A DNA stretch of 64,000 bases from Candidatus Hydrogenedentota bacterium. Its GTDB lineage: Bacteria > Hydrogenedentota > Hydrogenedentia > Hydrogenedentales > SLHB01. Location of the stretch: positions 320,001 through 384,000 of the forward strand of contig CAXXYE010000007.1 in assembly GCA_963674865.2 (NCBI GenBank), given 5' to 3'. The position numbers and the translations under genes are program-made. Positions within the stretch are counted from its first letter, which is position 1. The number at the start of each line of letters is the position of its first letter. A model generated the notes under the pieces. It saw nothing but the letters and a program-made list of their open reading frames with translations, searched no databases and was not told the origin of the DNA. Positions 7,182 to 36,896 of the stretch are shown here, one piece after another.

Positions 7182-7304
7182 CTACGGCCTGGCGAGGCGG
7201 AACCCCAAGAGGTCGCTCCGGGTGCCCGGGTCGCGCCCGGAACGAATCGCGGATCGGCAGCTCCTCGGGCTGCCGCTCCAGCAGCCACCGCGGGCCACCC
7301 GGTA
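7182..7304 (-). other. Putative DGR variable repeat (VR1) with invariant 3' tail
   Basis: Differences from VR2/VR3 fall mostly in positions 1-2 of NNC/NGG codons; 7182-7208 identical in all three. Confidence 0.85.
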
Positions 7305-9317
7305 CGAGCCCGTACTGGGGCCCGGGGGGTCGGTTACTGAACCCGAAGGATAGGACCCGTACCAGTCCTGGCACCACTCCAAAACGTTGCCGTGCATGTC
7401 GTGCAGCCCCCAAGCATTCGGACGAACGCTCCCCACCGAAGTCGTCTTTCCCCGGTCAACCCCCTTCTTTCCTGAACCGTACGTGTAATCGCCATCGTAG
7501 TTCGCCTGCTCCGTCGAGATCGTCTCTCCAAAATAGAACGGGGTCTGGGTCCCTGCACGGCACGCATACTCCCACTCCGCCTCCGTCGGAAGACGAAACG
7601 TGCCTTGCCCTTTGGCATTAATTCTCTTGATGAACGCCTGGCAGTCGTCCCAAGAAACGTAGTAAATGGGATAATCCGCCCCTTCTCCGCGAAGCGGCCA
7701 CTCCTTGTTGGCCCTATCGCGTTGCTGACCCACTGTGTTACCCATCACCGCCTTCCACTGCGCCTGGGTAACTTCATACTTCCCCAGCCAGAACCCCTTC
7801 GTGAGCGTCACCTGGTGCTGGACCTCGTCGTCATCGCGGCCCTCCTCGCTCTCCGGGCTCCCCATCATGAAGGTTCCCGGCGGGACCCAGACCAACTCAA
7901 GTGTCACGCCGCCGCCAAGGTCGACCGTACTTGTGGTGCCTGCTTCCGGCTCGCCTTGGGACTCGTGTCGTGTGACCGTAAGAGGTCCAGCATCTGGACC
8001 TTCGTGGATTTCTGGGAGCGGTACTGCCAGTAATTCCGCAGCGCGCCCAAGAATATCATCAGTAGGGTCCGACTCTCCTCGAGGAGCATGATCATAGCTT
8101 CGACGCGTCGTCTCGCTCTTGAAGTAGTGCCATAGCCACGGTGAAACAGCAGCCAGGCAGACCAATGTTAGTGCGGCCACTACGATGAGTTTCTTGCCTC
8201 GCCGGCCAAGCGAGCCAACAAGTTTCGCCGGCGCTTCTCGCCCCTCGGCCTGTCGCCGGGCTTCTTTGGCCCGCTCCATCTCCCTGGCCCCATCTATCTC
8301 CTTGGCTCGCCGCCCCTCCTCCTCGGCTCGTTCTTCTTCGTCCTTGCGGCGTGCTTCTGCCTCCCCTTCACGCCGCTGGGCTTCGGCCTTCTGCCGGGCC
8401 GTTTCTCCGCAAAGGTCTTTGTAGAAGGCGGCGCAGTTGGCCTGGCGGTCGGTGGGCTGCTTGTCCAAGGCGGTCAAGAGGGCTTCGTTAACGTGGGCAG
8501 GGACGCCATCGATAGGCGACGGAGCCTTCAACTGGATCTGCGTGGGGATCGAGCCGGTGTGGAAAGGCGTGTCGCCGGCAAGGAGTTCGTAGACACTGGC
8601 CGCGAGGCTATATAGGTCGGCCCGGACGTCGAGCTTCTCACCCATGAGCTGCTCGGGGCTCATGTAAAGGAGCGTGCCGCTGCTAACCTCGCCCGTCACG
8701 CGGGTCTGGGTATCCTTGGCGGCCCGGGCGATGCCGAAGTCGGCCAGCTTCACATTGCCGTCGCGCCCGAGGAGCATGTTGCCGGGTTTCACGTCGCGGT
8801 GAAGGACGCCCTGGCTGTGCGCATAGTCCAGCGCCCGGGCGACGCGGCGTGCACAGGCCAGTACCTGTTCGAGCGGAAAAGGCCCGCCATACTCGGCGAG
8901 GGCGTCGGACAGGGACCGGCCGTCCACGTATTCCATGGTGATGAAATGGATGCCGACGTCCTCGTGGATATCGTACACGCCGACGATGTTGGGATGGCGC
9001 AGCTTGCGCGTGAGGGCGACCTCGCGTTTCATATCCGCGACGGCCCGCATATCCCCTATCAGTTCGGGTTTGAGGATCTTGCACGCGACCTGCTCGTCCA
9101 GGACGATGTCCCGCGCGAGCCAGACATCGCCCATACCCCCGCTCCCGACCCGGCGCACCAGTTGAAACCGTTCAAGGAGCACGGTTTCCGCCGCGAGGTC
9201 GAAAAGGGTGCGCGTGTCGCCGCTTCCCTCGACCAGCGCGACTTTCTCCCCGCACGCCGGGCAAAACGCCGCACCCTCCGGCACCTCCGCCCCACATGTT
9301 GGATTAAGGCACTTCAT
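7182..9317 (-). CDS. Zinc ribbon + Ser/Thr kinase + TM + FGE/SUMF1 (CLec-fold) domain; putative DGR target 1
   Basis: GSGGMG, HRDVKPGN, DFG; TM LIVVAALTLVCLAAVSPWLW; FMMGS, RLPTEAEWEYACRAG, NAWGLHDMHGNV, RGG..GFRLARP. Confidence 0.93.
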   Translation of the reverse strand: MKCLNPTCGAEVPEGAAFCPACGEKVALVEGSGDTRTLFDLAAETVLLERFQLVRRVGSGGMGDVWLARDIVLDEQVACKILKPELIGDMRAVADMKREVALTRKLRHPNIVGVYDIHEDVGIHFITMEYVDGRSLSDALAEYGGPFPLEQVLACARRVARALDYAHSQGVLHRDVKPGNMLLGRDGNVKLADFGIARAAKDTQTRVTGEVSSGTLLYMSPEQLMGEKLDVRADLYSLAASVYELLAGDTPFHTGSIPTQIQLKAPSPIDGVPAHVNEALLTALDKQPTDRQANCAAFYKDLCGETARQKAEAQRREGEAEARRKDEEERAEEEGRRAKEIDGAREMERAKEARRQAEGREAPAKLVGSLGRRGKKLIVVAALTLVCLAAVSPWLWHYFKSETTRRSYDHAPRGESDPTDDILGRAAELLAVPLPEIHEGPDAGPLTVTRHESQGEPEAGTTSTVDLGGGVTLELVWVPPGTFMMGSPESEEGRDDDEVQHQVTLTKGFWLGKYEVTQAQWKAVMGNTVGQQRDRANKEWPLRGEGADYPIYYVSWDDCQAFIKRINAKGQGTFRLPTEAEWEYACRAGTQTPFYFGETISTEQANYDGDYTYGSGKKGVDRGKTTSVGSVRPNAWGLHDMHGNVLEWCQDWYGSYPSGSVTDPPGPSTGSYRVARGGCWSGSPRSCRSAIRSGRDPGTRSDLLGFRLARP

Positions 9318-9439
9318 GCGTTACCCCGTTCCGCTGTGGCCCGTCCATATGACTGGGCACAGGGATAATCTATCAGGTCGAGACACCGCAGGTCACATCG
9401 GCGGCGGTTGTCTCGGCAGGCAAGGCAAACAGCACAGTC

Positions 9440-10330
9440 CTAGCCTTGCATATCTTCGCCGTTTGCTGAGGGCCGCGAGGCGACGTGGGGCAGAATATAT
9501 GGCGCGTCGAGACAAAGCCGGAGGCCGAGGAAGCCGAACCGGGCCTTTTGACCCAGAGCGTAGCTGTAGGCCGACCGGCAACTCAAGGGTTCGCTGACCC
9601 AGCCCCCTCCGCGCATGACTCGCGCCGGGCCCGCCGTGTCAATGTTCGGGTTATAGGTGACGCCGTAACGGTCCTGGCACCATTCCCAAACGTTGCCGTG
9701 CATGTCATAGAGGCCCCATGCATTGGGCGGAAAGCTCCCGACGGGCGTTGTGGCCGCTCGGTACGCGCCGCCGGGTCTCCCGGCGTACCGGTATTCGCCA
9801 TTGTAATTGGCGCGGTCCGTGCTGATGGCGTAACCGAAATTAAAGGGCGAGGTCGTGCCCGCGCGGCAGGCGTATTCCCATTCGGGCTCCGTGGGCAAGC
9901 GGAATTGTAAGCCCGTGCGGTCGTTGAGCCGCTGGATAAACACTTGGCAGTCCTCCCAGGAGACGCATTCGGCCGGATGGATGTAGCTGTGAAACTGGAA
10001 GCCCCTTCCGTCGGTACCATCATTGCCCATGACCGCGACCCACTGGGCCTGGGTGACCTCGTATGCGCCCATCCAAAAACCGCTAGCAATGGCAACCTCC
10101 CGCTGGATTTCATCCTCGGGATCACGTTCCGGCTCCGACGGCGGGCTGCCCATGACAAACGTGCCCGGCGGCACCCATACCATCTGAATTCCCGCGATCA
10201 ACCGTTCCTCGCCGGGCAGCCCCGGCCTCAACGGCTCCATCCGCGGCCGCGGTTGGCCCACCTTCGCCCCTTCCGGGCAGCCTACCCCCAGCAGCGCTAT
10301 CATAATGAGAAGACATGCCATGCGTTTCAT
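9440..10330 (-). CDS. Lipoprotein with FGE/SUMF1 domain
   Basis: MKRMACLLIMIALLGVGC lipobox; RLPTEPEWEYACRAG, NAWGLYDMHGNVWEWC. Confidence 0.88.
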   Translation of the reverse strand: MKRMACLLIMIALLGVGCPEGAKVGQPRPRMEPLRPGLPGEERLIAGIQMVWVPPGTFVMGSPPSEPERDPEDEIQREVAIASGFWMGAYEVTQAQWVAVMGNDGTDGRGFQFHSYIHPAECVSWEDCQVFIQRLNDRTGLQFRLPTEPEWEYACRAGTTSPFNFGYAISTDRANYNGEYRYAGRPGGAYRAATTPVGSFPPNAWGLYDMHGNVWEWCQDRYGVTYNPNIDTAGPARVMRGGGWVSEPLSCRSAYSYALGQKARFGFLGLRLCLDAPYILPHVASRPSANGEDMQG

Positions 10331-10478
10331 CGTCCCGCTCCTTTCCACCGTCGTCGTTGCATCTGTTAAGTGAGGAGCAAGGCGTGTGCCGGGGCCCTTG
10401 TGACAAGGAGGTCACGGGCACGAGCGGCCGAGCTAGATTTGACCCGGAATGAGTCAAGGTCTTGAGGTGGGGCCCCGG

Positions 10479-11390: not shown

Positions 11391-11406
11391 GGGTGTGCTG
11401 TCCTCT

Positions 11407-14126: not shown

Positions 14127-14134
14127 CTTCTTGC

Positions 14135-16172: not shown

Positions 16173-18938
16173 CTATGGCCCTTTTCTGACCACCCGAAAA
16201 CCATACTGGCAATTGGTCGAGTAGGCGTTGTCAAAGAAACGGCTCGTACTTCGGAGCCGACGGATAGGGGAGGAAGAACCGCCGCCTCGCAGCACATGTC
16301 GCGTGGTGCCGCCGGCAGTGCCCGTTGGATCATGTTGCGGACTTCGCCGGTAATAGTCCTTGTCGTAGAGGTCCATACACCACTCCCAGACGTTTCCTGC
16401 GAGATGGTACACGTCGGTGCCGGGGGTACCGCCCCTCGGGAAACTGTATACGGGTTTGAGCGAAGTAGACGGTACTACCCAAGGCTGGTCAAAGAGCGCC
16501 AGGCTCGGAGAAGGAACGCTATTGCCCCAAGGGTACACCCTCTGGGCTGCGCCCCGGGCCGCATACTCCCACTCTGCTTCCGTAGGTAGCCGGCAAGACC
16601 TGCCGGTCTTTCGTTCAAGCCACCGGCAAAACTCTAGAGCGCCGTACCAGGTGACCTCGTTAGCCGGATGGTATTCGCAACCCGAACGTGCGCGAAACCT
16701 GTCCCCCTCGCGGACGAGCGTACAGTCCTTACTCAGGCCGATGAGGCGGCTGCTCAAGGCGCCGCGCTCATTCAAGAAGGCGGCAAACTGAGTGGCCGTA
16801 ATTTCGTAGCGCGAGAGATAGAAATCAGACACTGTCACGGTGTGGACCGGCGCCTCGTCGGAATAGGCGTCGGGGGACTCGCTCCCCATGGCGAACGTGC
16901 CCCCTTTAATGAAGACCATCTCGGGATCGAGTGAGACGACTCCCGAAGGTGGGGACGCTGACAGAGACTCAAGCACGGCGGCATCCTCCTCAGGCGGGGG
17001 CGAGGACACCGTGGGGGGGCGCGCGTCAGTGGATACCGTTTCCGCAACCGAGTGCTCGCTATCTTCGGATGTCGTTTTCGCTGCCGGCATGGGTACCGCA
17101 ACAAGACTCTGTTCCTGTGCCTCTTCCTCCAAGAGCACGTAGGTCGTTGCAATGCATCTGGCCTCGCCAGTATTCCTCACGCGGCTGTTTACAGACGAGA
17201 CAGACATACTGCGTTCTAGGTTCGTGACATCAAAAAAGAACTTGAAAGCCTTCAGCGCGTTTATGAATGCATCGACTTGGTCTGACGTGCCCCGGGCCTC
17301 GACGTTGAACGGCACCTTCTCGACGCGCCCATTCCGTCTCCCAGCCAATGCCTCCAGTCTGAGTTGAACGCCCTTTTCCTCCGCCAGGCTCTCCAATAAC
17401 TTCGGCAGCAGAGGCAACTCCCGTTTTTTCGGCAAACGTCCGTCATTGGCGAGCCCCACCAACGTGTCGAGTGTTACAACCTGTTGGGCGGGTTCAGTGC
17501 CTTCTTTCACTGGCTCTGTCAGGTCCTCCTCTCCAACCGCTTCTTTAGAGGGCTGCTGGGCCGTGGCCGCCGTCCCTTCCGCTGCGCCGGTCAGCTCATC
17601 CTCGGTCATTGTTGCCCCGGACGTCTCGGCCTCCTCCAGCGCCAAGGGAGAGGTCATTCCCTTCGCTACGGGCCTCTTGTCCCCCGCGACGGCTGCAGCG
17701 TCCTCAAGCGGCTCTGTAGACGATGTCTCAGGTTCCGGCGGCTCCGCGACGGGGGCGCGTTCTTCCCCTTTCTCGATGGTCTCGCCCTGCAGCGACAGTG
17801 GGGGCTCCGGCCACGGTTCCGTCCCCGCAGGAGTACGTTTCTCCTGGCGTATGACCAGGAACAACGACAGGGCCAGTATGACCAAGGCGGTGGCCATCGG
17901 CACAGCCCATTTCACCTTGCTCCTTCGTTGCGTAGCACGGCCGAGAGCACTGCGCAGGGCGGACGCGGATTCGTAGCGTTCCTCTGCGTTTGGCTCCAGA
18001 CAGGTTAGGACAACGGTGTCGAGACCCTTCGGCGTCTCGGGACTTATCTGAGAAGGGCGTTTCACACGCCCCACCGGGATCTCCCCGGTCAGCATCTGGT
18101 AGAGGATAACCCCAAAAGAGTAGATGTCCGCGCGCTGGTCCAGCTCGCGGAGGTGGACGCCCTGTTCGGGGGCTTGGTAGTACGCCGTACCCAGGGCCAT
18201 GCTTGACTTGGCCAGGCGGCCCGGCGACATGAGTTTCGCCAGGCCGAAATCCAGCACCTTGATAGACCCGTCGGGCCGCACCATGATGTTCTGCGGCTTG
18301 AGGTCGCGATGGATGGTATTTCTGTGGGCGTACTCCAGGGCATCGCAGAGTTGGTGTGCGATGCCCAACGCCTCATCCACCGGCAGCCGCCCGCCGCGTT
18401 CCTGCAACAGGCGATGGAGCGTCCTTCCTTCGACGTACTCCATCGTGAAGAAGTAGAAGCCGCGGCGCTTGTCCGCCGCGAGGTCGTATACCCGCACGAT
18501 GTTGTCATGGCTCAACTGCTGGCTGATGGCCACCTCGGACCGGAACCGCTGCCGGGCGCCCTCGCTCCTGAGCAGCGACGGCAGCATCACCTTGAGGGCC
18601 TTCTCCAGGCCCAGGTGGCGGTCCTTCACATGGTAGACGGCGCCCATGCCGCCGAATCCGAGTTGCTTCACCACCTCGAATCGCTTGGCCACTACATCGC
18701 CCGTTTTCAGCAGGACGGCTTCTTGCTCCCGGATGAGGTCCGGGTCCAGTTCGCTCCCCTGGGGCAGGAACGGTTTGAGCTGATCCTCCGCCCACGTTGG
18801 CGACTCCCCTGCGGAGACCATCCCTGGGGCAAAAGCCTCCCCCGGTGCCCCTTCGGGCGCCTCGCCGGCCCCGCGGTCACCCTCCCAGCGCGTTGGGCTG
18901 TCGCCTTCGCTGTCTATCTCGGGCGGTTCATGTCTCAA
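16173..18938 (-). CDS. Ser/Thr kinase + TM + acidic linker + PilO-like domain + FGE/SUMF1 domain
   Basis: GFGGMG, HRDLKPQN, DFG; TM WAVPMATALVILALSLFLVI; LPKKRELP..VPFNVEARGT..FINAL (PilO-like); RLPTEAEWEYAARG. Confidence 0.88.
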   Translation of the reverse strand: MRHEPPEIDSEGDSPTRWEGDRGAGEAPEGAPGEAFAPGMVSAGESPTWAEDQLKPFLPQGSELDPDLIREQEAVLLKTGDVVAKRFEVVKQLGFGGMGAVYHVKDRHLGLEKALKVMLPSLLRSEGARQRFRSEVAISQQLSHDNIVRVYDLAADKRRGFYFFTMEYVEGRTLHRLLQERGGRLPVDEALGIAHQLCDALEYAHRNTIHRDLKPQNIMVRPDGSIKVLDFGLAKLMSPGRLAKSSMALGTAYYQAPEQGVHLRELDQRADIYSFGVILYQMLTGEIPVGRVKRPSQISPETPKGLDTVVLTCLEPNAEERYESASALRSALGRATQRRSKVKWAVPMATALVILALSLFLVIRQEKRTPAGTEPWPEPPLSLQGETIEKGEERAPVAEPPEPETSSTEPLEDAAAVAGDKRPVAKGMTSPLALEEAETSGATMTEDELTGAAEGTAATAQQPSKEAVGEEDLTEPVKEGTEPAQQVVTLDTLVGLANDGRLPKKRELPLLPKLLESLAEEKGVQLRLEALAGRRNGRVEKVPFNVEARGTSDQVDAFINALKAFKFFFDVTNLERSMSVSSVNSRVRNTGEARCIATTYVLLEEEAQEQSLVAVPMPAAKTTSEDSEHSVAETVSTDARPPTVSSPPPEEDAAVLESLSASPPSGVVSLDPEMVFIKGGTFAMGSESPDAYSDEAPVHTVTVSDFYLSRYEITATQFAAFLNERGALSSRLIGLSKDCTLVREGDRFRARSGCEYHPANEVTWYGALEFCRWLERKTGRSCRLPTEAEWEYAARGAAQRVYPWGNSVPSPSLALFDQPWVVPSTSLKPVYSFPRGGTPGTDVYHLAGNVWEWCMDLYDKDYYRRSPQHDPTGTAGGTTRHVLRGGGSSSPIRRLRSTSRFFDNAYSTNCQYGFRVVRKGP

Positions 18939-21990: not shown

Positions 21991-22058
21991 AGCGTTTCCC
22001 TCCTTACGCAATGGCTTCGGTTCGCGGATAGAGAAGCGCAAACCGCGTGCCAAGCTTC

Positions 22059-22078
22059 ATGTGACTAACGCGTCACAT
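22059..22078. promoter_or_regulatory. Possible operator (7-bp inverted repeat, 6-bp spacer)
   Basis: ATGTGAC-taacgc-GTCACAT about 70 bp upstream of the PASTA/LamG gene. Confidence 0.3.
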
Positions 22079-22160
22079 CGGAAGGTTTGTACACGTAGTA
22101 ATAGGAAGAAGGAGCTGATCGTTGAACCGAAAGGAGAGACTCCTACGATGCGAAATGAAG

Positions 22161-23345: not shown

Positions 23346-23436
23346 TGGCCGGTTAGATTAGCAGAGGCTCAGCAAGCGGGCCAAATGTCGGCGCGTTCTT
23401 GCCGCGATGACCCCAATCTGAGGCCTTCCATCCGGC

Positions 23437-24411: not shown

Positions 24412-24653
24412 TGCCCCTCCCCATGCTGGTCGGCATTCCAAGGGCCTGCGGGACGCAGAGCCGCGCCCATAATCTACTGTGGCAGGGCACGCTGTTCAAC
24501 AACGGCCCCATGGTTGTCCTCACCGTCTCGTCATCAGGAAGAGCAATCACAATGCCAAATCCATGTGACATGCCGGTCCCTATCGCCCTGTTCGGGCGTT
24601 GGCGAGCGACTTGCTCCTGAGTAAGTGGAAGAGACTTTGAAAGGACGGCAGAA

Positions 24654-24962
24654 ATGATGCCTGTGCAGATGACGGAAGCCCGGTGCGAATGGTGCGCACG
24701 CACCTGCCGCGAAACGCATCTCTGGCGTTTGCCCCATCTCACACCGAACGGGAGCAGGTTCGAGACCGTGCTTGTCTGTCCCTCCTGCGCCTTCGACGCG
24801 TGCGAGACCTGGCAGGACGAGATGACCGCCCTCAATAGCCAGGCCGTCCTCGAAGCCTGGAACCTCTGGACGCAGGAAAAGAGCGTACCCTTTCTCAAAG
24901 CCGACGACGGCCGCGATCTCCGCACCGCCCTCCGCCTCGTCGTCATGGCGGGCGGAGTGTAA
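24654..24962 (+). CDS. Small hypothetical protein with CxxC pairs
   Basis: CEWC..C and CPSC..C; fills an intergenic gap. Confidence 0.45.
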   Translation: MMPVQMTEARCEWCARTCRETHLWRLPHLTPNGSRFETVLVCPSCAFDACETWQDEMTALNSQAVLEAWNLWTQEKSVPFLKADDGRDLRTALRLVVMAGGV

Positions 24963-25017
24963 GGCCCTGTTTGACCGGCGGAGACACGCGCCTGCCGGAG
25001 AGCTAACGCCTCTCAGC

Positions 25018-28000
25018 TCAATTGTTCACAAACCTCCGCAGTCTCTCTAACTTGTATAAACGAATGCGTTCGTCAACAGGCATCTCCCTATTTCCCGGCA
25101 GCTGTTCCTCATTCCAGGGAAACGAGGGCAAAATGGCCACCTTCTTCGAGTCGCTCAAGACAAGATGTCTACCGTCTGGACTGAAGCACGAGTTTCCGAG
25201 GGGAAAGTCAGGTTGGGCAAACTGCATAACTTCCCGGCCGGTCGCCACATCCCACAGCTTTGCCGTCATGGCGTATGCACCTGCCGTAACCAGGCGACTG
25301 CCGTCTGAGCTGAAGTTCAGGGACGCCACGGAGCGTGTCGAATGCGCCTTCGCACTCCACATTTGCCGTCCTGAAGAGACTTCCCAAGCCGCCACGCCCC
25401 CGTCGGTGCCTCCCACTGCGATTACGTCGCTTGTCGGGCTCAAGGCTGCACCTCCAATGTCCTCCCCCTCGATAGAATAGGAACCTTGTTGATGACCGGT
25501 ATCGCGGTCCCAGAGTAGCACACCTTCTTCCCGACGCCCCACGGCCATGTACTTTCCGTTGGGACTGAAAGCGACGCAGGTGACATCCCCTTCTCCTCCT
25601 AACGAGCGAAGGAATTCCCCTGTCTTGGCATTCAGGAGAACGCTCTTCCCCGCGTCGCCGACCACGCCCACCTGCCCACCGTCGGGGCTGAACACCGTCG
25701 TGCATTTGTCTGGCCTGCTCAGTTCGAGTGTGGGGCCTTGGAACATCCACTGCTCTATACCTGTGGACAGATCCCTGAGCCTGACCGCGCCATCCCCATC
25801 GACTGTGGCCAGGCTCCTGCCATCCGGACTTATCGACAAGCCATCTATGGTTGCTCCTTCGGCGGTGAGTGTTCTCACGCGGCGTCCGGAGCCCACATCC
25901 AAGATGCTTATCTGTCCCGTCTGCAAAGCAATCAGATGGTCGCCATCGGGCGTGAAGACGACCGAAGAGGAGATCACGGGGCATTCAGTGGCACCGACTC
26001 TTTGCTGCTGCCCAGCCAGGTCCCAGATCTTGGCTGTGCCCTCATTGCTGGCCGTGGCCAATCGAGTACCATCTGGGCTGACGGCGACGGCGTGAACCGT
26101 CCCCGAATGAACAAGTGTTCGTAAAACACTGCCAGTGTCGATATCCCACAGGTCCACGTGGCCGCCCTTGCCACCGGTCAGCAAGTGTTGGCCATCCGGC
26201 GTGAAACACACTATCTTCAGCCCACCTTGCATCTGAAGTCTTCGCACCTCTGTCTCTTGGGCCACGTCCCAGAACACCACGTGAGTATTATCGTTATCAA
26301 TAAAGGCCAGCAATTCGCCGTTTGGGCTGAAACCCATGCGGGCTTGCCCCGGGAATCGCGAGATAAGACTGCCCGTCGAAACGTCCCAGACACGCACAAC
26401 CAAGTCTTCGGCACTCGCCGTTGCCAACGTCCGGCCGTCTGGGCTCAACGCAAGGGAACTGACGTGTTCAGCCTCGGGGGTGAACGACATAGTCTCCTTG
26501 GCAGTGTCAATGTCCCAGAGCCTGGTCGTTCCATCCCAGCTCGATGTAACCAAGCGTTTGCCATCTGGCAGAAAAGCTAGGTCATTGGCGCCCCCAGTAC
26601 CATCCCCAAGTCTCTGGACCACGGTGTCCGTCTCCACATCCCACACCACCGCACAGACTTGGGAGCTGTCGCCGCCAATGGCCACGAACCGCCCCAATGG
26701 ACTGAAAGCCACGCATTTGAGCTTGCCAAAATCTTCTGAGCCCCATGTTCCAACCGAATTTCCCATTGCTACGTCCCAGACGATCGCTGTCCCGTCTACA
26801 CTTGCCGTTGCCAGCAGTTTGCCGCCCGGACTAAAGGCGACGTCATAGATGTTTTCTGAGTGACCACACAAGGTGACCAGGTCAAGGTTACTGAGATGTT
26901 GGAGATAGCCCCACTCCCAATTGCGGTGCTCTTCTGGGGCCGAAGCAAGAATCGTCCGAGCCTGCATAGCACGGCAACTATCCAGGGAGCCTTTCGCGGC
27001 GGCAATCGAGGCGTAGTAGAACTCCCGCTTGGCCTGCTCACTTGCGGCGACGACGCGTCGATTCTCTTGTAGCAGCCGCACGTAAGAGAAGGCGCTTACA
27101 GCGAGAAGCACGACCACCGCTGCCGCGGCTGTGAGCATGACCGCCCTGTGCCTACCGACAAACCGCCGGAGGTGTTCCGAGAACTTGTATTCATACGTCT
27201 GCACGAGTCGGCCGGATTGGAACCGCTCGATCTCCTCGGCCAGTTCCTTTACCGTCGGATAGCGTCCGTCGGGCTGTTTGGCCATCGCTCGTTCGGTTAC
27301 CGCCACCAACTCGCGAGGAGCCTGCGGCTCAAGGCTACCGACCGGCTCGGGCTCTTTCTCCAGCACGTGATAGCGAATCTGAAGGGGATTCTCTCCCTCA
27401 AAGGGCGCCCTGCCCGCGAGAAGTTGATATAGAATCGCGCCCAGTGAATACACGTCTGAACGCTCATCGATGGCGTCCGCCTCGCCGCGTGCCTGCTCAG
27501 GCGGCATGTATGCCGGCGTGCCAATGACCTGTCCCACCGCGGTAACACCGGCGTCGGTCCCTTGGACGAGCCCCATCTCCTGGAGCCGCTTCATCATCTC
27601 CTTCTCGTGCACGTCCTCCTGCGCACGGACCTTCGCCAGCCCCCAGTCCAGCACGACAGTCTCGCCGAACTCGCCCACCATCACGTTCACCGGTTTCAGG
27701 TCACGATGAATCACCCCCCGGTTGTGGGCATACGCCACGGCTTGGCAGAGGTCCATGAAATGCGGGAGGAGTTTCAGCCGCTCCCGCAAAGTCCCCGCGT
27801 CCTTAATGGCTTTCTCGAGCGTCCGGCCACGGACAAGCTTCATCGTGTAGTAGGGGCGCCCGTCCTGCCGCCGCCCCAGCTCATAGACCGGCACAATCGA
27901 GGGATGCTCCAACTGTCCGGTGACCCGGGCCTCCCGGAGAAATCGCGATATTAACGCCACGGTCTTCGGCGTCGTGCCCTCCGGTGTTTCTCCGGAACCT

Positions 28001-28491
28001 GCGGCAGGGAGCAGCTCCTTGAGCGCCACGTCCCGGCCTAGATACTCGTCGTGGACAAGGAGCACCCGGCCCATACCGCCTTGGCCCTGTTTTCCCAGGT
28101 ACGCGTACCGATCCTGGCTCTCTTCAACCGTCTTCCCGACGTCAGACAGAGCGTCAGGGGGGCTGCCGGCCCCACTTGAGGATGGACGCACCTCTCCCGA
28201 AGCTGCGGCGGCAACGGAACCATGGAAGGACCTGAGCGCTTCCTGCTGTCCGCCGAAGGCCCCCAGAGCCGAGGCGTTGTCCCCTTTGAAGAACGACTCA
28301 GCCTGCTTTACCAACGCCCAGATGAGGCGACCGTCACGTTCAGAGAGCACCCCGGATTCCACAAGGCATTTCGGCAGACTGCCTGAGGAATCCTTTGCCC
28401 ATTCCCGGGCAACTTCCGTGAACCTGGCGAGGTCAACGTTGCCAAGTCTAGTTGCTAAGAGCGCAAAAAGCAGATTTCGCTCAAGATCCAC
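25018..28491 (-). CDS. Ser/Thr kinase + TM + WD40 beta-propeller protein
   Basis: GQGGMG, HRDLKPVN, DWG; TM VMLTAAAAVVVLLAVSAFSYV; many VAFSPxG..WD repeats. Confidence 0.93.
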   Translation of the reverse strand: MDLERNLLFALLATRLGNVDLARFTEVAREWAKDSSGSLPKCLVESGVLSERDGRLIWALVKQAESFFKGDNASALGAFGGQQEALRSFHGSVAAAASGEVRPSSSGAGSPPDALSDVGKTVEESQDRYAYLGKQGQGGMGRVLLVHDEYLGRDVALKELLPAAGSGETPEGTTPKTVALISRFLREARVTGQLEHPSIVPVYELGRRQDGRPYYTMKLVRGRTLEKAIKDAGTLRERLKLLPHFMDLCQAVAYAHNRGVIHRDLKPVNVMVGEFGETVVLDWGLAKVRAQEDVHEKEMMKRLQEMGLVQGTDAGVTAVGQVIGTPAYMPPEQARGEADAIDERSDVYSLGAILYQLLAGRAPFEGENPLQIRYHVLEKEPEPVGSLEPQAPRELVAVTERAMAKQPDGRYPTVKELAEEIERFQSGRLVQTYEYKFSEHLRRFVGRHRAVMLTAAAAVVVLLAVSAFSYVRLLQENRRVVAASEQAKREFYYASIAAAKGSLDSCRAMQARTILASAPEEHRNWEWGYLQHLSNLDLVTLCGHSENIYDVAFSPGGKLLATASVDGTAIVWDVAMGNSVGTWGSEDFGKLKCVAFSPLGRFVAIGGDSSQVCAVVWDVETDTVVQRLGDGTGGANDLAFLPDGKRLVTSSWDGTTRLWDIDTAKETMSFTPEAEHVSSLALSPDGRTLATASAEDLVVRVWDVSTGSLISRFPGQARMGFSPNGELLAFIDNDNTHVVFWDVAQETEVRRLQMQGGLKIVCFTPDGQHLLTGGKGGHVDLWDIDTGSVLRTLVHSGTVHAVAVSPDGTRLATASNEGTAKIWDLAGQQQRVGATECPVISSSVVFTPDGDHLIALQTGQISILDVGSGRRVRTLTAEGATIDGLSISPDGRSLATVDGDGAVRLRDLSTGIEQWMFQGPTLELSRPDKCTTVFSPDGGQVGVVGDAGKSVLLNAKTGEFLRSLGGEGDVTCVAFSPNGKYMAVGRREEGVLLWDRDTGHQQGSYSIEGEDIGGAALSPTSDVIAVGGTDGGVAAWEVSSGRQMWSAKAHSTRSVASLNFSSDGSRLVTAGAYAMTAKLWDVATGREVMQFAQPDFPLGNSCFSPDGRHLVLSDSKKVAILPSFPWNEEQLPGNREMPVDERIRLYKLERLRRFVNN

Positions 28492-28531
28492 GTCTCTTCT
28501 CCAGCTTCCCCCTCATCTCCGGCAACCCAGG

Positions 28532-29848
28532 CTACGTATACGCCGCCGAGAGTTCCGTAAGAAACTCAGCGGCCGTCGGATACCGCTCGTCGGGTCTTGA
28601 TGCCAGGGCTCGGTCAATAACACGCGTTAGTGATGGTTCCAGTTCGGGCAGACGCGAACGGGCAGGAACAAGTCGATTCTCCAGGATGGCCTGTAAGGGA
28701 TCCTGGTTGGACTTCGCTTCCCGTGGCGGGCGGCCCGTCAGCATGAAATAGAGTGTCGCTCCGAAGCTCCAAACGTCACTGGCCGGATTGACGTACTTGA
28801 AGTCCGTGAGTTGCTCACGTGGCATGAATGGGTACGTTCCAAGATACGTGCCCGTAGCGGTCAGACCACTGAAGCCGGCACCTTGGAAAGACTTCGCGAG
28901 GCCGAAGTCGCCGATCAGAGCCACGGAGCCTGCCTTCGTCTTCTTGAGGAGGATGTTCTCGGGTTTGACGTCTCGATGGACCAGCTGCCTTTCATGGGCG
29001 TACCGGAGCCCTTCCAGGGCCTGCAGCGCGACCGGCAACGCCACTTGCGTTGGCAGGCGGCCGCCACCGTCTCGGACCAGGTCGGCAACACTGCCTCCGT
29101 CGCAGTAGTCCATCTCGAACCAAAAGGCATCATCGACAGTGCCGCACGCATGACAGGCCACAATGTTCGCATGACGCAGCTTGCGCAGAATGGTCGTTTC
29201 ACGAAGAAAGCGTTCCCTGGATACGTCATCTACAGAGACTCTTGGCAGCATTAGCTTGAGGGCTACCGGCTCTTGTTGTTGGCGACGGTGGGCCAGGAAG
29301 ACGGTGCCGCAGCCCCCTTCGCCGAGTTTCCTGTCGACTTCGTAGCCTGGGATGGCTGCGGCGTAGTCTTCGGGTGTCTCGCGAGACGGCTCCTGCCCGA
29401 CACGGGGGGGAGCTTCACGCCCGCTGGGAGGACACCCCGGGGCAGCATGGCCGCGTATGGAGACGGCGAAAGCCGTTTCGCCAACTTGTATCCGGTCGCC
29501 GTCCTGAAGACTGACTTGAGGATAACGTCGCTTTGAGGCCTGTTGCGGCGTTTCTTCCTTGCCCCGGCCGCCGTATTTCTTGCCGTTGACATGGGTCCCG
29601 TTAAGACTTCCTAGGTCCCGTACGCACGCGCTCGGAGGACAGACTTCGAGGATGAAGTGATGGCGCGACACGAAGGAATCGTCTTTCAAGAAGGCGTGAC
29701 AATCGGGACTTCTCCCAAAGAGGAAGGTGTCATACTGGTGGAATACGAACCGCTCACCTGTCAACGGTCCACTGACGGCCTGCAGCTCGACGTGCCCAGA
29801 TGAAGCCGTTGCGCGATCCCCCAGACTGTCGACGCACGTCCTTTTCAT
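28532..29848 (-). CDS. FHA domain + Ser/Thr kinase (start uncertain; ORF open to 29980)
   Basis: FGRSPDC..VSRHH..DLGSLNGTHVNG (canonical FHA); GEGGCG, HRDVKPEN, DFG. Confidence 0.92.
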   Translation of the reverse strand: MKRTCVDSLGDRATASSGHVELQAVSGPLTGERFVFHQYDTFLFGRSPDCHAFLKDDSFVSRHHFILEVCPPSACVRDLGSLNGTHVNGKKYGGRGKEETPQQASKRRYPQVSLQDGDRIQVGETAFAVSIRGHAAPGCPPSGREAPPRVGQEPSRETPEDYAAAIPGYEVDRKLGEGGCGTVFLAHRRQQQEPVALKLMLPRVSVDDVSRERFLRETTILRKLRHANIVACHACGTVDDAFWFEMDYCDGGSVADLVRDGGGRLPTQVALPVALQALEGLRYAHERQLVHRDVKPENILLKKTKAGSVALIGDFGLAKSFQGAGFSGLTATGTYLGTYPFMPREQLTDFKYVNPASDVWSFGATLYFMLTGRPPREAKSNQDPLQAILENRLVPARSRLPELEPSLTRVIDRALASRPDERYPTAAEFLTELSAAYT

Positions 29849-30094
29849 TCCGCGCACGTGGCCGTTGGACGCACGTGTCGCCCGTTCTCCTGATGTATCC
29901 ACTGGGCCAGCGGGCCGACCACCGTCATCTCTAGGCGGAAGTAAGAGGTGGTGACCTCTAGAGAAGCCGTCAGCAGCCACGTCCGATTATTCCTCACTCC
30001 TTCCCGGGTACATCGCGCAGCCGCCCGACCTGAATTGGCTGTCGTAACGCTGGGCGGCTATCAAATACGGCTCGCGTTGTCTTCTTAGCAGTTT

Positions 30095-33223: not shown

Positions 33224-33431
33224 GACCCCGCTCCTTTCCTCTAGGGATGCCGTGAAATCGTCTTGCCATGGAAGGAGCAAGGCCCGTGCCGGGAAAGGTG
33301 TGACAGGCGGGTCACAGGAGAATCAGACTGCCGGCAGCCCTCTCCGCGTTGCTCGGCGTCCTCTGCAGCTCTGCGTTTGGATTTTTTTTAGCGCCGAGAT
33401 GCGGAGTTCGCAAAGGAGCGCAGAGGAATCA

Positions 33432-33677
33432 CGTGGTTAACTTGATCAGTTCCTATGCCGCGGCCAGGGCTTCGCCCTGGACCCACTAAGATTGCTCGGT
33501 GCGACGCACCTCACAATCTCAAACAACATCCCCCTCCGAAGCACCTTAACCAGGGAAAAACACCCCCGCGCTACGGGCCTGTGCGCGGCCTATGCTACGC
33601 GGCCGCGCTCTTGGCCCTTCGCGCTTCGCGGCTTACGCCGCGCAAGCAACAAAGCCGCAAAGCAGTAAGCAGCAAAA
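33432..33677 (-). repeat. Conserved 3' trailer of DGR-target gene, copy 2
   Basis: Matches 6937-7181; hairpins include 33583-33608 and 33627-33642. Confidence 0.9.
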
Positions 33678-33800
33678 CTACGGCCTGGCGAGGCGGAACC
33701 CCAAGCGGCTGCGCCGGTAGCCCGGGACGACCCTGAAACGATTCGCGGAACGGCAGTACCACGGATTGAGGGACCAGCTGCCACCACGGAGCACCCGGTA
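33678..33800 (-). other. Putative DGR variable repeat (VR2)
   Basis: Same NNC/NGG variation pattern; invariant 3' tail. Confidence 0.85.
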
Positions 33801-35732
33801 CGAGCCTGTGCTGGGGCCCGTGGGGTCGGTTACTGAACCCGAAGGATAGTCCCCGTACCAGTCCTGGCACCACTCCAAAACGTTACCAATCATGTCGTAT
33901 AAGCCAAAGGCGTTGGGGCGAAAACTCCCAACTGGCGCCGTCACCTTATGGCCGTCCGTCGTGTCAGCAGCGTCCCAGGGGTGGTTGAACTCCGCCTTCC
34001 CTGTTCGGTCATAGACGTTTGCGTAGTTGCCCATCGTTCCGTCGTCGTCCCCCCAGTAACGCACCGTATCCGTCCCGGCACGACACGCATATTCCCACTG
34101 CGCCTCCGTCGGCAACGTGAAACCCTCGCCCGTCCGCTCCGAAAGCCACTTGCAGAATGCCTGAGCATCTTCCCAAGAAACATACACCGCAGGTTGTCGG
34201 TCGCCGTCCAGGCTGTGGCCTGCGTATTCCTTGCTCGAATGATCAGCCTTGAAACGCCGGTACTGGGCATTCGTCACCTCATACTTGCCCATCCAGAAGC
34301 CCTTTGAAATTGTCACCCGGTGCCGCGGATGTTCGTCCGTGTAGTATTCCGCTTTGCCGTCGTACTTCGATGCCACCTGCTCGGCGCTTAGCTTGGACCC
34401 CATCATGAAGTCCCCAGGCGGAATCCACACCAGCTCGAGCGTCACACCCCCGCCAAGGTCGACCGTCTTGATGTCACCGGGCGTGGGCTGTCGCTCAGTC
34501 TGTTGCGACGGTTGCCTCGAGGCAGCGGGCGCGGCCGTTGTCGATGCCGGGCCTTGCCCTGGGTCATCACGCGCCGCCCGGCCCTGCTGGCCAGAGGTCT
34601 CAGAAGAGGCCGCCCCTGCAAGGCCGTTATCTTCCGGCCCCGCGGGAGCGGGGCCCTCCCGGCGGAGGATAAAGGGCACAGCCAGCGCGAGCATCACAAC
34701 AGCGGCGATAATCAAGAACATGCGCCTCTTCGGCGCAGCCTTTGCGGTTAGCGCCGGTGGCTCCGGCTGTCGTTGGCGCGGCTCTTGTATCTCCCTCGGC
34801 TGCGCGACACCGTTACCTGTGCGGCTGCGGCCTGAACCTCCGGACAACGCCTCCTGTGTGGTGCTTTCGCCCTCACGAACACCTTGACGAATGAGCCTCT
34901 GCACAACCTTTGCCGACTCGGGTCGTTCCTCAGGCGATGGAGCGAGCAGCTCGAGCAGGAGGTCGTCGAGCCATCGAGGAAGGCTACTATTGAACTCACT
35001 GGGCAACCTGAACCGGCCCAGGGGTAACCGCCCGGTCAGGCATTGGTAAATCACCACGCCCAACGAGTACAAGTCGGCCCGCCGCGTCGCCTCCTCCCCC
35101 TGGAGCTGTTCGGGGGCCATATATACGGCCGTGCCGACGGCTGCACTCGACTGCGTGAACCGGTTTGAACCCACGATCCGCGCCAGGCCGAAGTCCAGCA
35201 ACTTCACGGCGCCGTCCCGGCAAACAAAGATGTTCTGTGGTTTGATGTCTCGATGTATCGTCGTGCGGTGCGCGTAAGCCAGTGCCTCCAAAACACCGGC
35301 CATGACCCGCAACGTCTTGTCTAGGGACAGCGTGCCCCGCTCACTGAGGATTTCATCGAGGCTGTGGCCGTCGAGATACTCCATGGTCAGGAAACGAATG
35401 CCTGCGTGCTCACCCAGGTCATAGGTTGTCACGATATTCGGGTGAGAGAGCTTCTGGGCAATGTGGGCTTCCTGCACGAACCGCTGCTGAGCGCGTTCGC
35501 TCTTCATGAGGGACGGCAGGATGACCTTGAGCGCCTTGAGTTCGCCCTCCATGAGCTGGTCTCGGACCTTGTACACCAGGCCCATGCCCCCGCCGCCAAC
35601 GGCCTCGACCACCTCGAAACGATCGGCGACAACCTCGCCCGCCGCGAAAACGACGCCCTCGTCCTTCGCCGTGAACAGCGTCGGGTGGTCGCCAAGACTA
35701 TCGATGTTGAATGAACGTTCCATGTCCCCCAA
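33678..35732 (-). CDS. Ser/Thr kinase + TM + FGE/SUMF1 domain; putative DGR target 2
   Basis: GGGGMG, HRDIKPQN, DFG; TM MFLIIAAVVMLALAVPFIL; LPTEAQWEYACRAG; ends RGGSW..GFRLARP. Confidence 0.93.
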   Translation of the reverse strand: MGDMERSFNIDSLGDHPTLFTAKDEGVVFAAGEVVADRFEVVEAVGGGGMGLVYKVRDQLMEGELKALKVILPSLMKSERAQQRFVQEAHIAQKLSHPNIVTTYDLGEHAGIRFLTMEYLDGHSLDEILSERGTLSLDKTLRVMAGVLEALAYAHRTTIHRDIKPQNIFVCRDGAVKLLDFGLARIVGSNRFTQSSAAVGTAVYMAPEQLQGEEATRRADLYSLGVVIYQCLTGRLPLGRFRLPSEFNSSLPRWLDDLLLELLAPSPEERPESAKVVQRLIRQGVREGESTTQEALSGGSGRSRTGNGVAQPREIQEPRQRQPEPPALTAKAAPKRRMFLIIAAVVMLALAVPFILRREGPAPAGPEDNGLAGAASSETSGQQGRAARDDPGQGPASTTAAPAASRQPSQQTERQPTPGDIKTVDLGGGVTLELVWIPPGDFMMGSKLSAEQVASKYDGKAEYYTDEHPRHRVTISKGFWMGKYEVTNAQYRRFKADHSSKEYAGHSLDGDRQPAVYVSWEDAQAFCKWLSERTGEGFTLPTEAQWEYACRAGTDTVRYWGDDDGTMGNYANVYDRTGKAEFNHPWDAADTTDGHKVTAPVGSFRPNAFGLYDMIGNVLEWCQDWYGDYPSGSVTDPTGPSTGSYRVLRGGSWSLNPWYCRSANRFRVVPGYRRSRLGFRLARP

Positions 35733-36099
35733 ACACCTCGCTAGGACAAAACACAGTGTAGCCTAAGCCTCGGCCTCGGACAAGCCCATGAAGACAGGCA
35801 TCGTAGCTTGGGACGGGCGAGACCTTCGCCTAGGCTACCGGTCTCGCTACGCAATGCTCTCCCTCTTGCACTTGGAATCATCCTTCCGTGAAAGTAGCAG
35901 GGCCCGTGCCGGGTAAGATGCGACAATGGGGCCACAAGACAAGGAATTGAATAGCGGGATGTGGTCTTCTCTTGGCGCACTTAGCGCCTTGGCGTCTTTG
36001 CGTGAGAATATCTTTAACATGGAGGCGCCGAGGTCGCGCAAACACGCGGCGGAATCGCGTGTTTCATCAGCGAATTGACTGTCTCATATGTCCCTTTTT

Positions 36100-36130
36100 G
36101 ACCACGGAGGGCACGGAGAACACGGAGAAG
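36100..36130. repeat. 9-nt periodic repeat flanking the GxxExxY gene
   Basis: GACCACGGAG-GGCACGGAG-AACACGGAG; near copy at 36619-36652. Confidence 0.7.
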
Positions 36131-36205
36131 GTACCATGCCGATGTCGCTCATGCTTTCGGTAGTCTTCTCGCGCCTTCCTCAGTCGCCCCGAACGCTTCG
36201 CTCTA

Positions 36206-36601
36206 TCATCCGATGGACACCCGTCGCAGCCCGTCAATCATCCGCGGGACGTTGAAGTTCATCAGGTAGCCACGTCTGAAACCCAGCAATCGCAAGTAGC
36301 TCAGGATTTGGGCCATGTGGAGTTCGTTCAACTCTGATACGCATTTCAACTCGAGCAGCAGACAGTTCTCGACGATCACGTCCGCCCGAAAACCAAGCCC
36401 CAGATCGTGTCCGCGGTACGTGACGGGGATCTCGACTTGTGTGGAAGCAGCGATCCCAAGGCCCTTCAATTCAAATGCCAGCGCTTTCTCGTATACGGAC
36501 TCCAGTAATCCAGGTCCGAGCTTCCGGTGCACCGTAATCGCCGCGCCAATAACACGTTCGCACAGGGCATCCGGGCAATCGAGTAGTCCCGCGTTGCTCA
36601 T
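36206..36601 (-). CDS. GxxExxY protein (PD-(D/E)xK nuclease superfamily)
   Basis: VHRKLGPGLLESVYEKAL, FRADVIVE, LELK, HMAQILSYL, GYLMNFN; 131 aa from ATG at 36601. Confidence 0.93.
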   Translation of the reverse strand: MSNAGLLDCPDALCERVIGAAITVHRKLGPGLLESVYEKALAFELKGLGIAASTQVEIPVTYRGHDLGLGFRADVIVENCLLLELKCVSELNELHMAQILSYLRLLGFRRGYLMNFNVPRMIDGLRRVSIG

Positions 36602-36672
36602 AGTTTCAAGATCCTTATGACCACGGAGATAAGGGCACGGAGAACACGGAGAGAGGCCCCTCTTTCTTCCTC

Positions 36673-36773
36673 CGTGGTTAACTTGATCAGTTCCTATGCC
36701 GCGCTTCTGGCCCTTCGCGCTTCGCGGCTTACGCCGCGTATGCCGCAAGGCCGCAAAGCAGTAAGCAGCAAAA
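36673..36773 (-). repeat. Conserved 3' trailer of DGR-target gene, copy 3 (internally deleted)
   Basis: Both ends match copies 1 and 2; lacks 145 bp; keeps hairpin 36723-36738. Confidence 0.88.
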
Positions 36774-36896
36774 CTACGGCCTGGCGAGGCGGAACCCCAA
36801 GCTGCAGTGCCAGCCGCCCGGGACGCTCCTGCTACGATTCGCGGAACGGCAGAGCCTCGGGGCGTCGAACCAGCTGCCACCGCGGAACACCCGGCG
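36774..36896 (-). other. Putative DGR variable repeat (VR3)
   Basis: Same NNC/NGG variation pattern; invariant 3' tail. Confidence 0.85.

Follow-up and report, generated by a model that had tools for sequence, protein, structure and literature searches.

DGR targets in which a Ser/Thr kinase is fused to an FGE-type CLec domain are grouped as class b12 in the available text of Wu et al. (2018 NAR, PMC5758913), and STK-CLec variable proteins, together with remote variable proteins, are reported from cyanobacteria in the available part of Vallota-Eastman et al. (2020 BMC Genomics). The former text also describes the DGR of Treponema denticola, with seven non-adjacent targets and one template, and the latter the gene all3226 of Anabaena PCC 7120, which keeps remnant TR-VR homology with no nearby RT. 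The accessible portion of Roux et al. (2021) states that their own survey approach misses remote targets. RT-first DGR surveys are blind to targets whose cassette is remote or lost.

The genome under study (G000) has four genes, A to D, which encode Ser/Thr kinase-TM-FGE/CLec proteins. As in the STK-CLec DGR targets, so far as the available texts describe them, the kinase precedes a C-terminal FGE/CLec domain whose last ~40 codons hold the variable repeat (VR), several paralogs are dispersed, and the CLec domain is grafted onto differing N-terminal parts.

Organization of the kinase genes

The genes and their hypervariable codons are located as follows, in positions of the window, which is the whole 64,000-nt stretch of DNA analysed.

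Gene A: 7182..9317, minus strand, 711 aa; zinc-ribbon, Ser/Thr kinase, hydrophobic span, FGE-sulfatase/CLec (ORF, translation, Pfam)
Gene B: 33678..35732, minus strand, 684 aa; Ser/Thr kinase, hydrophobic span 34665-34724, FGE/CLec (ORF, translation, Pfam)
Gene C: 36774..39701, minus strand, 975 aa; Ser/Thr kinase, hydrophobic span 38565-38624, FGE/CLec (ORF, translation, Pfam)
Gene D: stop at C7:316170, 3.8 kb before the window; fourth kinase-TM-FGE/CLec gene, VR-bearing
Gene E (comparator): 16173..18938, minus strand; fifth kinase-FGE paralog, without the VR module
VR-A hypervariable codons: 7209..7304, minus strand; codons 34-65 of the last 74
VR-B hypervariable codons: 33705..33800, minus strand (codon table, variable columns)
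VR-C hypervariable codons: 36801..36896, minus strand (codon table, variable columns)

The gene and VR coordinates of the preliminary description were correct, and its three genes in the window are all on the minus strand. It had counted three VR genes, and there are in fact four, with D outside the window, besides a fifth kinase-FGE paralog (E) that has no module. Gene E gave no match to the VR by blastn or nhmmer; with C and D it shares 72% identity in the kinase but just 31-32% in the FGE domain. Gene C has a long Ala/Glu/Lys-rich linker and 80% identity to D.

The Pfam matches of gene A are Pkinase (5e-47) and FGE-sulfatase (1.8e-54). In the receptor-kinase genes Pkinase (PF00069) was found with E-values of 5e-47 to 1e-48, and in A, B, C and D the FGE-sulfatase domain extends to the final residue. 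The hallmarks of Pkinase are a Gly-rich loop, a catalytic HRD and a DFG motif, and G-x-G-x-x-G, HRDxKP and DFG are found in A, B and C. Gene A has a single hydrophobic span (8130-8189). A to D are predicted to be single-pass receptor kinases, with the kinase cytoplasmic and the FGE-type C-type-lectin domain facing outward, and the final ~32 codons of this domain are the predicted ligand-binding DGR variable repeat. The solved structure closest to the ectodomain of A is the DGR variable protein TvpA of Treponema denticola (PDB 2y3c, E 6e-30), which to our knowledge has no kinase domain. Protein A forms a 90% cluster on its own; its best homologs have ~60% local identity, and there is no second strain to compare. 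The four VR-bearing receptor kinases are located near dnaA.

Pattern of variation in the repeats

The four copies were aligned over a core of 120 nt (codons 32-71). This core has 35 variable columns, which fall at codon positions 1, 2 and 3 in the numbers 17, 14 and 4 (31/35 at positions 1-2), and 85 invariant columns, which contain 37 G, 36 C, 12 T and no A. In the 93 nt directly upstream, A occupies 14 of the 74 invariant columns and the variable columns are distributed 6/4/9. Whole-gene A content is 19-21%, and the chance of finding zero A in 85 invariant columns is 0.8^85, or ~6e-9. The core pattern is not chance.

Most codons that vary at positions 1-2 end in C, and this NNC/NGG-type variation matches the expected footprint of AAC/AGG template codons. 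The preliminary description had already noted the invariant third C, which the codon table of four copies bears out, and had counted among 32 codons 18 that differ at positions 1-2 and three that differ at position 3; a recount of A, B and C agrees, the latter three being codons 38, 45 and 50. Gene D shows the same pattern as these three. The VR cores also contain at least four synonymous non-A differences (codons 38, 45, 50 and 54), and core third positions are variable at 4/40, against 9/31 in the block just upstream.

The shared module and its 3' flank

The 3' ends of A, B, C and D have in common a module of ~430 nt. It comprises 5' homology over 81 nt, the VR, an IMH-like end of 37 invariant nt and a 3' flank rich in hairpins. 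Its parts in the window are as follows.

81-nt upstream module part of A: 7311..7391, minus strand; 89-93% identity among copies
Invariant 37 nt, copy A: 7173..7209, minus strand; VR end, LGFRLARP, stop and 9 nt past the stop
3' flank of A: 6965..7181, minus strand; conserved non-coding, 217 nt
GC hairpins in the A flank: 7131-7146 (GTAA loop) and 7072-7128, plus two more distal
Invariant 37 nt of B (33669-33705) and 218-nt conserved 3' flank: 33460..33705, minus strand
Hairpins in the B flank: 33627-33642 and 33568-33624
Invariant 37 nt of C (36765-36801) and only 76 nt of 3' flank: 36698..36801, minus strand

The 81-nt upstream part keeps invariant A's and was therefore not A-mutagenised. 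The identical tail mentioned in the preliminary description is real, although longer than the 27 nt given there: a GC-rich run of 37 nt that begins at the final base of codon 65 and extends 9 nt beyond the stop is identical in 4/4 copies, while the non-coding DNA near this stretch differs by 8-18% between copies. This stretch probably represents an IMH-like 3' boundary; in the relatives, the TR/VR homology terminates within the equivalent stretch. A GC-rich IMH at the VR 3' end, followed by a hairpin or cruciform, was reportedly described by Guo and coworkers in 2011. Copies D, A and B have GC hairpins at +36 to +51 and +54 to +110, with DNA fold z values of -4.4 to -5.2, and hairpins occupy the corresponding place in the targets of relatives. 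All three copies keep the second hairpin intact. Copy C has lost it: there the first hairpin (36723-36738) is retained and an internal deletion of ~140 nt has removed the 3' arm of the large one. Just one compensatory pair was seen, located in a more distal hairpin, and Rfam had no match within 20 kb covering D and its flank.

The module is 89-93% identical among copies, versus 50-55% for the remainder of the FGE domain of B, and is found on three unrelated kinase backbones. These comparisons suggest that it was dispersed among the paralogs via recombination. A shared module on unrelated kinase backbones also suggests a route by which new genes become DGR targets.

Comparison with DGRs of related genomes

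Four relatives of the same family and order (G014, G020, G023 and G040) bear a template repeat (TR). The TRs compared at the core columns belong to canonical DGRs from two further genera of this family. The G023 TR has A at 29/35 variable and 3/85 invariant core columns (Fisher p 1e-18), and the G014 TR at 29/35 and 5/85 (p 6e-17). The template peptide predicted in the preliminary description was essentially right, matching the G023 TR at 34/37 defined positions. Since the core has no invariant A, its variable columns coincide with related-TR adenines and this peptide matches, the stretches are almost certainly DGR-written variable repeats. The A-free invariant columns and the related TRs likewise support the earlier proposal that these kinase-FGE/CLec proteins end in DGR-type VRs.

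Full target-(Avd)-RT-TR cassettes are present in G040, G014 and G020, in which 17-20 TR/VR mismatches fall at A and 1-4 at non-A, the latter nearly all within the IMH end. The VR bodies of intact relatives have 0-1 non-A differences, and those of G000 one or two per VR. The RTs of the relatives carry IGNLTSQ or IGNLISQ; the motif of the DGR-clade RTs is I/L/V-G-x-x-x-S-Q. Full-length DGR-class RTs were found in 3/24 other family genomes searched. In addition, G002, of the same family, has a truncated DGR RT (profile positions 15-175 of 352, with one TGA) beside a VR-bearing target, and no TR was detected in this genome. DGR decay therefore occurs in the lineage.

The VR/TR sequences of these five relatives are homologous to the VRs of G000, with 70-77% DNA identity. 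Relatives and G000 also have alike a GFRLAR-type C-terminal motif, and a T/G-rich stretch with a strong GC hairpin downstream of every target. On the other hand, no kinase was seen on inspection in the targets of the relatives, unlike those of G000, and the G040 targets start with a region that by eye is caspase-like. The cassette adjoins a target in 4/4 relatives examined, whereas G000 targets have none beside them.

Search for template, RT and Avd

The assembly has 5.79 Mb in 11 contigs, is 97.5% complete and is not closed. As 19 of the 22 contig ends are unique sequence, not repeats, real assembly gaps exist. The preliminary description had placed the template and RT elsewhere, with diversification in trans, and this was unsupported: no TR, DGR-class RT or Avd was found in the assembly or in the collections scanned. 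The genome-wide BLASTN with the VRs that it advised gave the four VRs and no TR. Run on the assembly, blastn at word size 7 and nhmmer --max with a profile of the four VRs returned these VRs and weak matches to other FGE genes. A fuzzy regular expression with up to 12 substitutions over 106 fixed positions (the 109 invariant columns without those of the stop codon) found none beyond the four VRs. The two best weak matches, C2:231618-231729 and C9:1931401-1931546, were rejected as TR, being C-termini of other FGE-domain ORFs and not non-coding A-rich repeats. With the TRs of the four relatives as queries, G000 yielded the VRs, a single further FGE gene and no TR.

PF00078 found only two RTs in G000, which PADLOC assigned to UG19 (1.4e-151, on C9) and Drt8 (4.7e-143, on C10), both of which align with DRT models over the full length. 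A profile built from three DGR RTs scored at most 43.7 bits in G000, versus 438-640 bits for genuine ones, and tblastn found no DGR RT in this genome. Avd is a four-helix bundle, PF05635-like; PF05635 had 0 matches at E<=1 in G000 (10 candidates scored), and with the G040 Avd as query tblastn had no match under E 1.5. The 3' flanks of all four targets, where relatives carry their cassettes, are fully assembled and contain none.

Outside the assembly, IUPAC patterns in which the variable columns were N had 0 matches in genome, metagenome and viral contig collections, and the exact 37-nt tail had 0 matches in metagenome contigs. A 24-nt piece of the tail matched one genome contig by chance, where a short-chain-dehydrogenase-like ORF of a Burkholderiales MAG ends. 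From these scans, records of the genome itself were possibly excluded. A DNA search of 41 relatives and 135 genomes of the phylum revealed, outside G000, no sequence more than 75% identical to the VR region.

For a check of the sample, Logan contigs of three runs, which lose rare variants, were aligned at 80% likeness. Runs X2 and X3 (~4-11x depth) are one sample, probably the source sample. The VR-A unitig in both is identical to the assembly, and its depth versus the flanks is 8.8 vs 7.7-11.4 in X2 and 4.2 vs 3.8-7.4 in X3. At most three other contigs aligned on VR-A in these runs, fitting D, B and C; no fifth VR copy was seen at this likeness, in contigs from which variants or a TR could escape. 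Run X1, a marine metagenome, had only FGE-domain look-alikes, with no piece 99% alike.

Origin and present state of the repeats

As neither TR nor DGR-class RT was found, relic targets or an unassembled cassette remain, as the preliminary description had itself allowed, and with the retroelement missing from a nearly complete genome the stretches most probably survive as frozen remnants. We propose that a DGR of the clade surviving in other genera of the family, in which an Avd accompanies an IGNLTSQ-type RT and a TR with many AAC codons, would have copied one template repeat into all four genes. This copying would have randomised each template adenine and so given each paralog a different binding surface; from the sequences, the copying step is indirectly but strongly shown. 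The module probably moved among the paralogs by recombination onto three unrelated kinase backbones. Later loss of the Avd-RT-TR cassette would have frozen the four repeats, each fixed at one specificity, to which we give a probability of roughly 0.6. That the cassette was lost rather than not assembled is made plausible by the rarity of full-length RTs in the family, the decay in G002, the synonymous non-A drift and the unchanged VR-A unitig. Against loss are the unclosed assembly with its real gaps, the contig-level sample data at ~4-11x, and the non-A differences, one or two in each VR, which barely exceed those of intact relatives; the invariant 37 nt and the hairpins intact in 3/4 copies fit recent or continuing selection for target function.

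This IMH-like end, the hairpins kept in D, A and B and the little non-A drift at third positions would also fit a DGR still present and active in trans, with its cassette in one of the genuine assembly gaps or on an unbinned plasmid or phage, and the available text of Wu et al. (2018, PMC5758913) documents remote targets and trans action. We consider this unlikely, because RT, Avd and TR are all absent at such completeness, the four flanks are empty where cassettes of relatives adjoin their targets, the VR-A unitig is as deep as its flanks, no fifth copy appears in X2 or X3 (a TR less than 80% alike would escape) and no match to the patterns turned up in viral, metagenome or genome collections. 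It is distinctly improbable that the module is a portable target cassette, a ~430-nt block graftable onto any FGE receptor, by which an off-chromosome DGR (plasmid, phage or unbinned) still rewrites the four genes; if so, recombination of this block would enrol any FGE-domain receptor for hypermutation. Ordinary paralogs under diversifying selection on the binding surface, with flanks homogenised by gene conversion and no retroelement, would suit a genome without TR or DGR-class RT, and conversion or recombination among the paralogs is evident from the module identity. Selection, however, cannot account for the complete lack of A in the invariant columns, nor for variable columns that correspond to TR adenines of other genera, and leaves the fixed third-position C in NNC codons unexplained, so that this reading appears very improbable and already close to refuted by the sequence data. 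That a defence RT wrote the repeats from an unrecognised template is scarcely credible: UG19 and Drt8 are the sole RTs in the assembly, but both are distant from the targets and are full-length matches to DRT models, no TR-like sequence accompanies them in the assembly, and the VRs are homologous to classical DGR targets in relatives.

Relation to known systems

Knowledge of the DGR mechanism is unchanged by this finding. What it indicates is that DGR-written repeats are recognisable from the targets alone, as paralogs sharing a module with A-free invariant columns. It also offers a natural case of what probably follows DGR loss, with four receptor kinases that each have a different, fixed binding surface.

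STK-CLec and remote DGR targets are already known, and G000 adds targets without a detectable cassette. From the STK-CLec DGRs of the available texts it differs in this missing cassette and in its phylum, Hydrogenedentota. It resembles all3226, as the available part of Vallota-Eastman et al. (2020) presents it, in having VR-type paralogs stranded without the diversification machinery; the genome of all3226 apparently has a DGR elsewhere, whereas G000 has four targets and no cassette found. Treponema denticola, according to the available text on it, retains its RT and TR, and is like G000 in that one template serves several targets across the chromosome.

Receptor-kinase genes carrying variable repeats

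Four genes encode proteins with a kinase and an FGE domain and end in a variable repeat (VR) of the kind made by diversity-generating retroelements (DGRs):

Gene A, window 7182–9317, minus strand: 711 aa, Pkinase and FGE-sulfatase domains
Gene B, window 33678–35732, minus strand: 684 aa, Pkinase and FGE-sulfatase domains
Gene C, window 36774–39701, minus strand: 975 aa, Pkinase and FGE-sulfatase domains
Gene D, C7:316170–319094, 3.8 kb before the window start (the window being C7:320001–384000): 974 aa, architecture as in A–C

The preliminary description had counted three, all in the window; D was added by a whole-genome blastn search. The kinase-CLec architecture that it assigned to the window genes was confirmed in Pfam (Pkinase, E 5e-47 to 1e-48; FGE-sulfatase, E 2e-50 to 4e-57, extending to the final residue). 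The kinases of A, B and C contain the Gly-rich loop, HRDxKP and DFG motifs of kinases. A single strongly hydrophobic span of 20 residues separates the two domains in each protein; the kinase is likely cytoplasmic, with the lectin-like sensor domain facing outward. The dnaA gene is located 3.6 kb from gene D (L043 11167–12528; C7:311167–312528); the kinase-FGE cluster is therefore chromosomal rather than part of a mobile element, and lies near the region that probably holds the replication origin.

Footprint of adenine mutagenesis

The final 74 codons of A–D align without gaps. Over codons 34–65 of A, B and C, a recount reproduced exactly the earlier figures of 18 codons varying at positions 1–2 and three at position 3. 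The four copies were then compared over a VR core of 120 nt (codons 32–71), with the adjoining 93 nt upstream as comparison block. The core has 35 variable columns, distributed over codon positions 1, 2 and 3 as 17, 14 and 4, which use all four bases (A 42, T 43, C 28 and G 27 in 140 cells). Its 85 invariant columns comprise 37 G, 36 C, 12 T and no A, while A occupies 14 of the 74 invariant columns upstream and makes up 19–21% of the genes overall. If every template adenine is randomised, invariant columns are expected to be free of A, and the core shows that footprint.

Canonical DGRs are present in genomes of other genera, and the ends of their targets are homologous to the VRs described here. 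Four of these genomes have the following elements:

G040, same order: target, Avd, reverse transcriptase (RT; IGNLTSQ), template repeat (TR), second target
G014, same family: target, Avd, PIN-like ORF, RT, TR
G023, same family: RT, TR
G020, same family: 1375-aa target, RT, TR

Between TR and VR of the relatives, 17–20 mismatches fall at template A and 1–4 at non-A, the latter nearly all within the end that corresponds to the IMH, the 3′ VR boundary. Aligned with A–D, the G023 TR has A at 29 of the 35 variable and 3 of the 85 invariant columns (Fisher p 1e-18), the G014 TR at 29/35 and 5/85 (p 6e-17), and the G040 TR at 22/35 variable and 9/83 other columns. The template peptide predicted from the window sequence agrees with the translated G023 TR at 34 of 37 defined positions. 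The proposed DGR type of the repeats is thus borne out, since most of their variable columns are adenines in relatives' TRs and none of their invariant columns is A; that a DGR wrote all four repeats we take to be established (probability about 0.95).

Search for template, reverse transcriptase and Avd

The retroelement that wrote the repeats is missing from the genome as assembled. The preliminary description had placed template and RT elsewhere, with diversification in trans, and that part was not supported: the assembly contains no TR, DGR-class RT or Avd. Searches for a TR by blastn, nhmmer --max and fuzzy fixed-position matching returned the four VRs only, and the TRs of G014, G020, G023 and G040 matched these VRs and, beyond them, only a single further FGE gene, which lies on contig C2. 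PF00078 detected two RTs, the only ones in the genome, both full-length matches to models of defence RTs:

L001 (C9:934917–938366): RT_UG19, 699 aa, 1.4e-151
L002 (C10:112029–115460): Drt8, 516 aa, 4.7e-143

A profile built from three DGR RTs scored 438–640 bits in G014, G020, G023 and G040 and at most 43.7 bits here, on the Drt8 gene. PF05635 (Avd) gave no match in this genome, and RT and Avd of G040 as tblastn queries gave no additional one. The assembly has zero N bases. Downstream of each of the four targets, in the place where relatives have their cassette, the sequence is assembled and holds none; it contains a histidine-kinase-like gene, ORFs without Pfam match, or the next paralog.

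N-masked VR patterns had no match in public genome, metagenome and viral collections, nor did a 37-nt stretch at the VR end in the metagenome collection. A 24-mer from the VR end (GFRLARP-stop) had one match, in a Burkholderiales MAG (L044 3655–3678), where it ends an unrelated dehydrogenase-like ORF by chance. Across 135 genomes of the phylum, DNA identity to the VR region outside the present genome reached 75% at most.

The shared module and mosaic paralogs

The VRs are part of a module of about 430 nt. B is 50–55% identical to the other copies over the 5′ portion of its FGE domain; the value then climbs abruptly, to 89–93% in the 81 nt preceding the core and 97–100% across 29 nt spanning the stop. 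The 37-nt stretch is without difference among the four copies; it appears to behave like an IMH, since the TR/VR homology of relatives stops inside its counterpart. After the stop region, D, A and B share about 195 nt of non-coding flank (88–93% identical), of which C keeps only 76 nt, about 140 nt having been deleted internally. In this flank, one GC hairpin with a GTAA loop folds from +36 to +51 and a second from +54 to +110, and two more follow. The z-scores of the DNA fold range from −4.4 to −5.2 in D, A and B; C, in which the large hairpin has lost its 3′ arm, has −2.6. Only one compensatory pair occurs, among three sequences, and an Rfam search found no matching family. A strong hairpin about 50–60 nt past the stop is likewise present in targets of G014, G002, G020 and G040; in G014 and G002 the primary sequence at this place is recognisably similar to that of the present genome. 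No further occurrence of the module was found elsewhere in the genome.

C and D are 80% identical along their full length. For A, identity is 76% in the FGE domain (with D) and only 36–38% in the kinase, and B is about 50% identical to every other copy. Other genes of the region are:

Window 2–910, minus strand, on to C7:319204: FGE-domain gene without kinase, flanking A
Window 921–5362: two double-zinc-ribbon proteins
Window 9440–10348, minus strand: FGE-domain gene without kinase, 302 aa, probable signal peptide, flanking A
Window 16173–18938, minus strand: gene E, fifth kinase-FGE paralog, 921 aa
Window 19150–22053: PASTA/LamG-type protein
Window 25018–28491: kinase-WD40 protein, 1157 aa
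Window 28532–29980: FHA-kinase
Window 50738–52039, minus strand: tyrosine recombinase (phage integrase family, Arm DNA-binding domain)

Gene E has a C/D-type kinase (72% identical to C and D) and an FGE domain only 31–32% identical; it lacks the module and ends differently (…QYGFRVVRKGP). The module is thus found on three kinase lineages, one of which also bears a module-free ectodomain; this is most simply explained by recombination between the paralogs. The single-copy C-terminus of the gene at 9440–10348, RVMRGGGWVSEPLSCRSAYSYALGQKARFGFLGLRL, looks VR-like. The FGE gene on C2 (231400–231800, outside the window) ends in …RGGSWNSYLQYCRSASRNPYYTPAYLNSSHGFRVVRTP, 5.6 kb from the contig end; it matches the G040 and G020 TRs at 71–74% over about 110 nt, equal to the four VRs, and may be another orphan VR. 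Signalling genes are abundant between A and B (19150–29980), and the tyrosine recombinase may indicate that an element has integrated downstream of the cluster.

Fate of the cassette

In G002, a genome of the same family that is 100% complete, a DGR RT with one TGA is truncated to its N-terminal half (L045, G002 C1:42000–58000, at about 7170–7655; profile positions 15–175 of 352). It adjoins a 1384-aa FGE target with a VR-like end (L045 9353–13504), and blastn detected no TR in the 16 kb; the locus looks like a DGR caught decaying. G010, also of this family, has near-identical RT frames of 544 aa at 17 places, which look like group II intron copies.

Loss of the cassette is the reading that we favour, as somewhat probable. 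It is supported by the completeness of the assembly (97.5%), by the presence of a full-length DGR-class RT (400 bits or more, a cut-off set by us) in only 3 of 24 other family genomes searched, and by the G002 RT remnant beside a VR-ended target. The VR cores also show at least four synonymous non-adenine differences (codons 38, 45, 50 and 54), and the VR-A unitig in two sequencing runs of one sample (X2 and X3) is identical to the assembly, at the same depth as its flanks. However, these read data consist of contigs only, at about 4–11x depth, and the sample is only probably the source, which weighs against loss. An unassembled or extrachromosomal cassette, although unlikely, would fit the contig ends: 19 of 22 are unique sequence, so the assembly does have gaps. 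The conservation of the IMH-like stretch above its surroundings also counts against loss, as do the 1–2 non-A differences per VR, near the 0–1 of intact relatives.

Comparison with known systems

Metagenomes commonly encode kinase-FGE proteins whose ends are VR-like; most of 13 such sequences end in a GFR/GLR-type motif preceded by Asn/Tyr/Ser-rich stretches. Full-text searches of the literature yielded no description of a genome with several VRs but no cassette, which is weak evidence of absence. Roux et al. 2021 (PMC8144416) state that remote targets are missed by their RT-anchored approach. Vallota-Eastman et al. 2020 (PMC7517822) report a paralog that retains remnants of TR-VR homology but has no RT nearby, and suggest removal of the machinery after a variant is selected. 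Non-adjacent and remote targets were described by Wu et al. 2018 (PMC5758913), with 29 targets from ten DGRs more than 100 kb away and up to seven targets in Treponema. Their list includes a kinase-domain target class, and Vallota-Eastman et al. describe STK-CLec variable proteins, remote variable proteins and intragenomic dispersal; genes A–D are likewise kinase-FGE. The four well-marked DGR variable repeats in receptor kinases near dnaA are real, and they belong to a kind that is already known.
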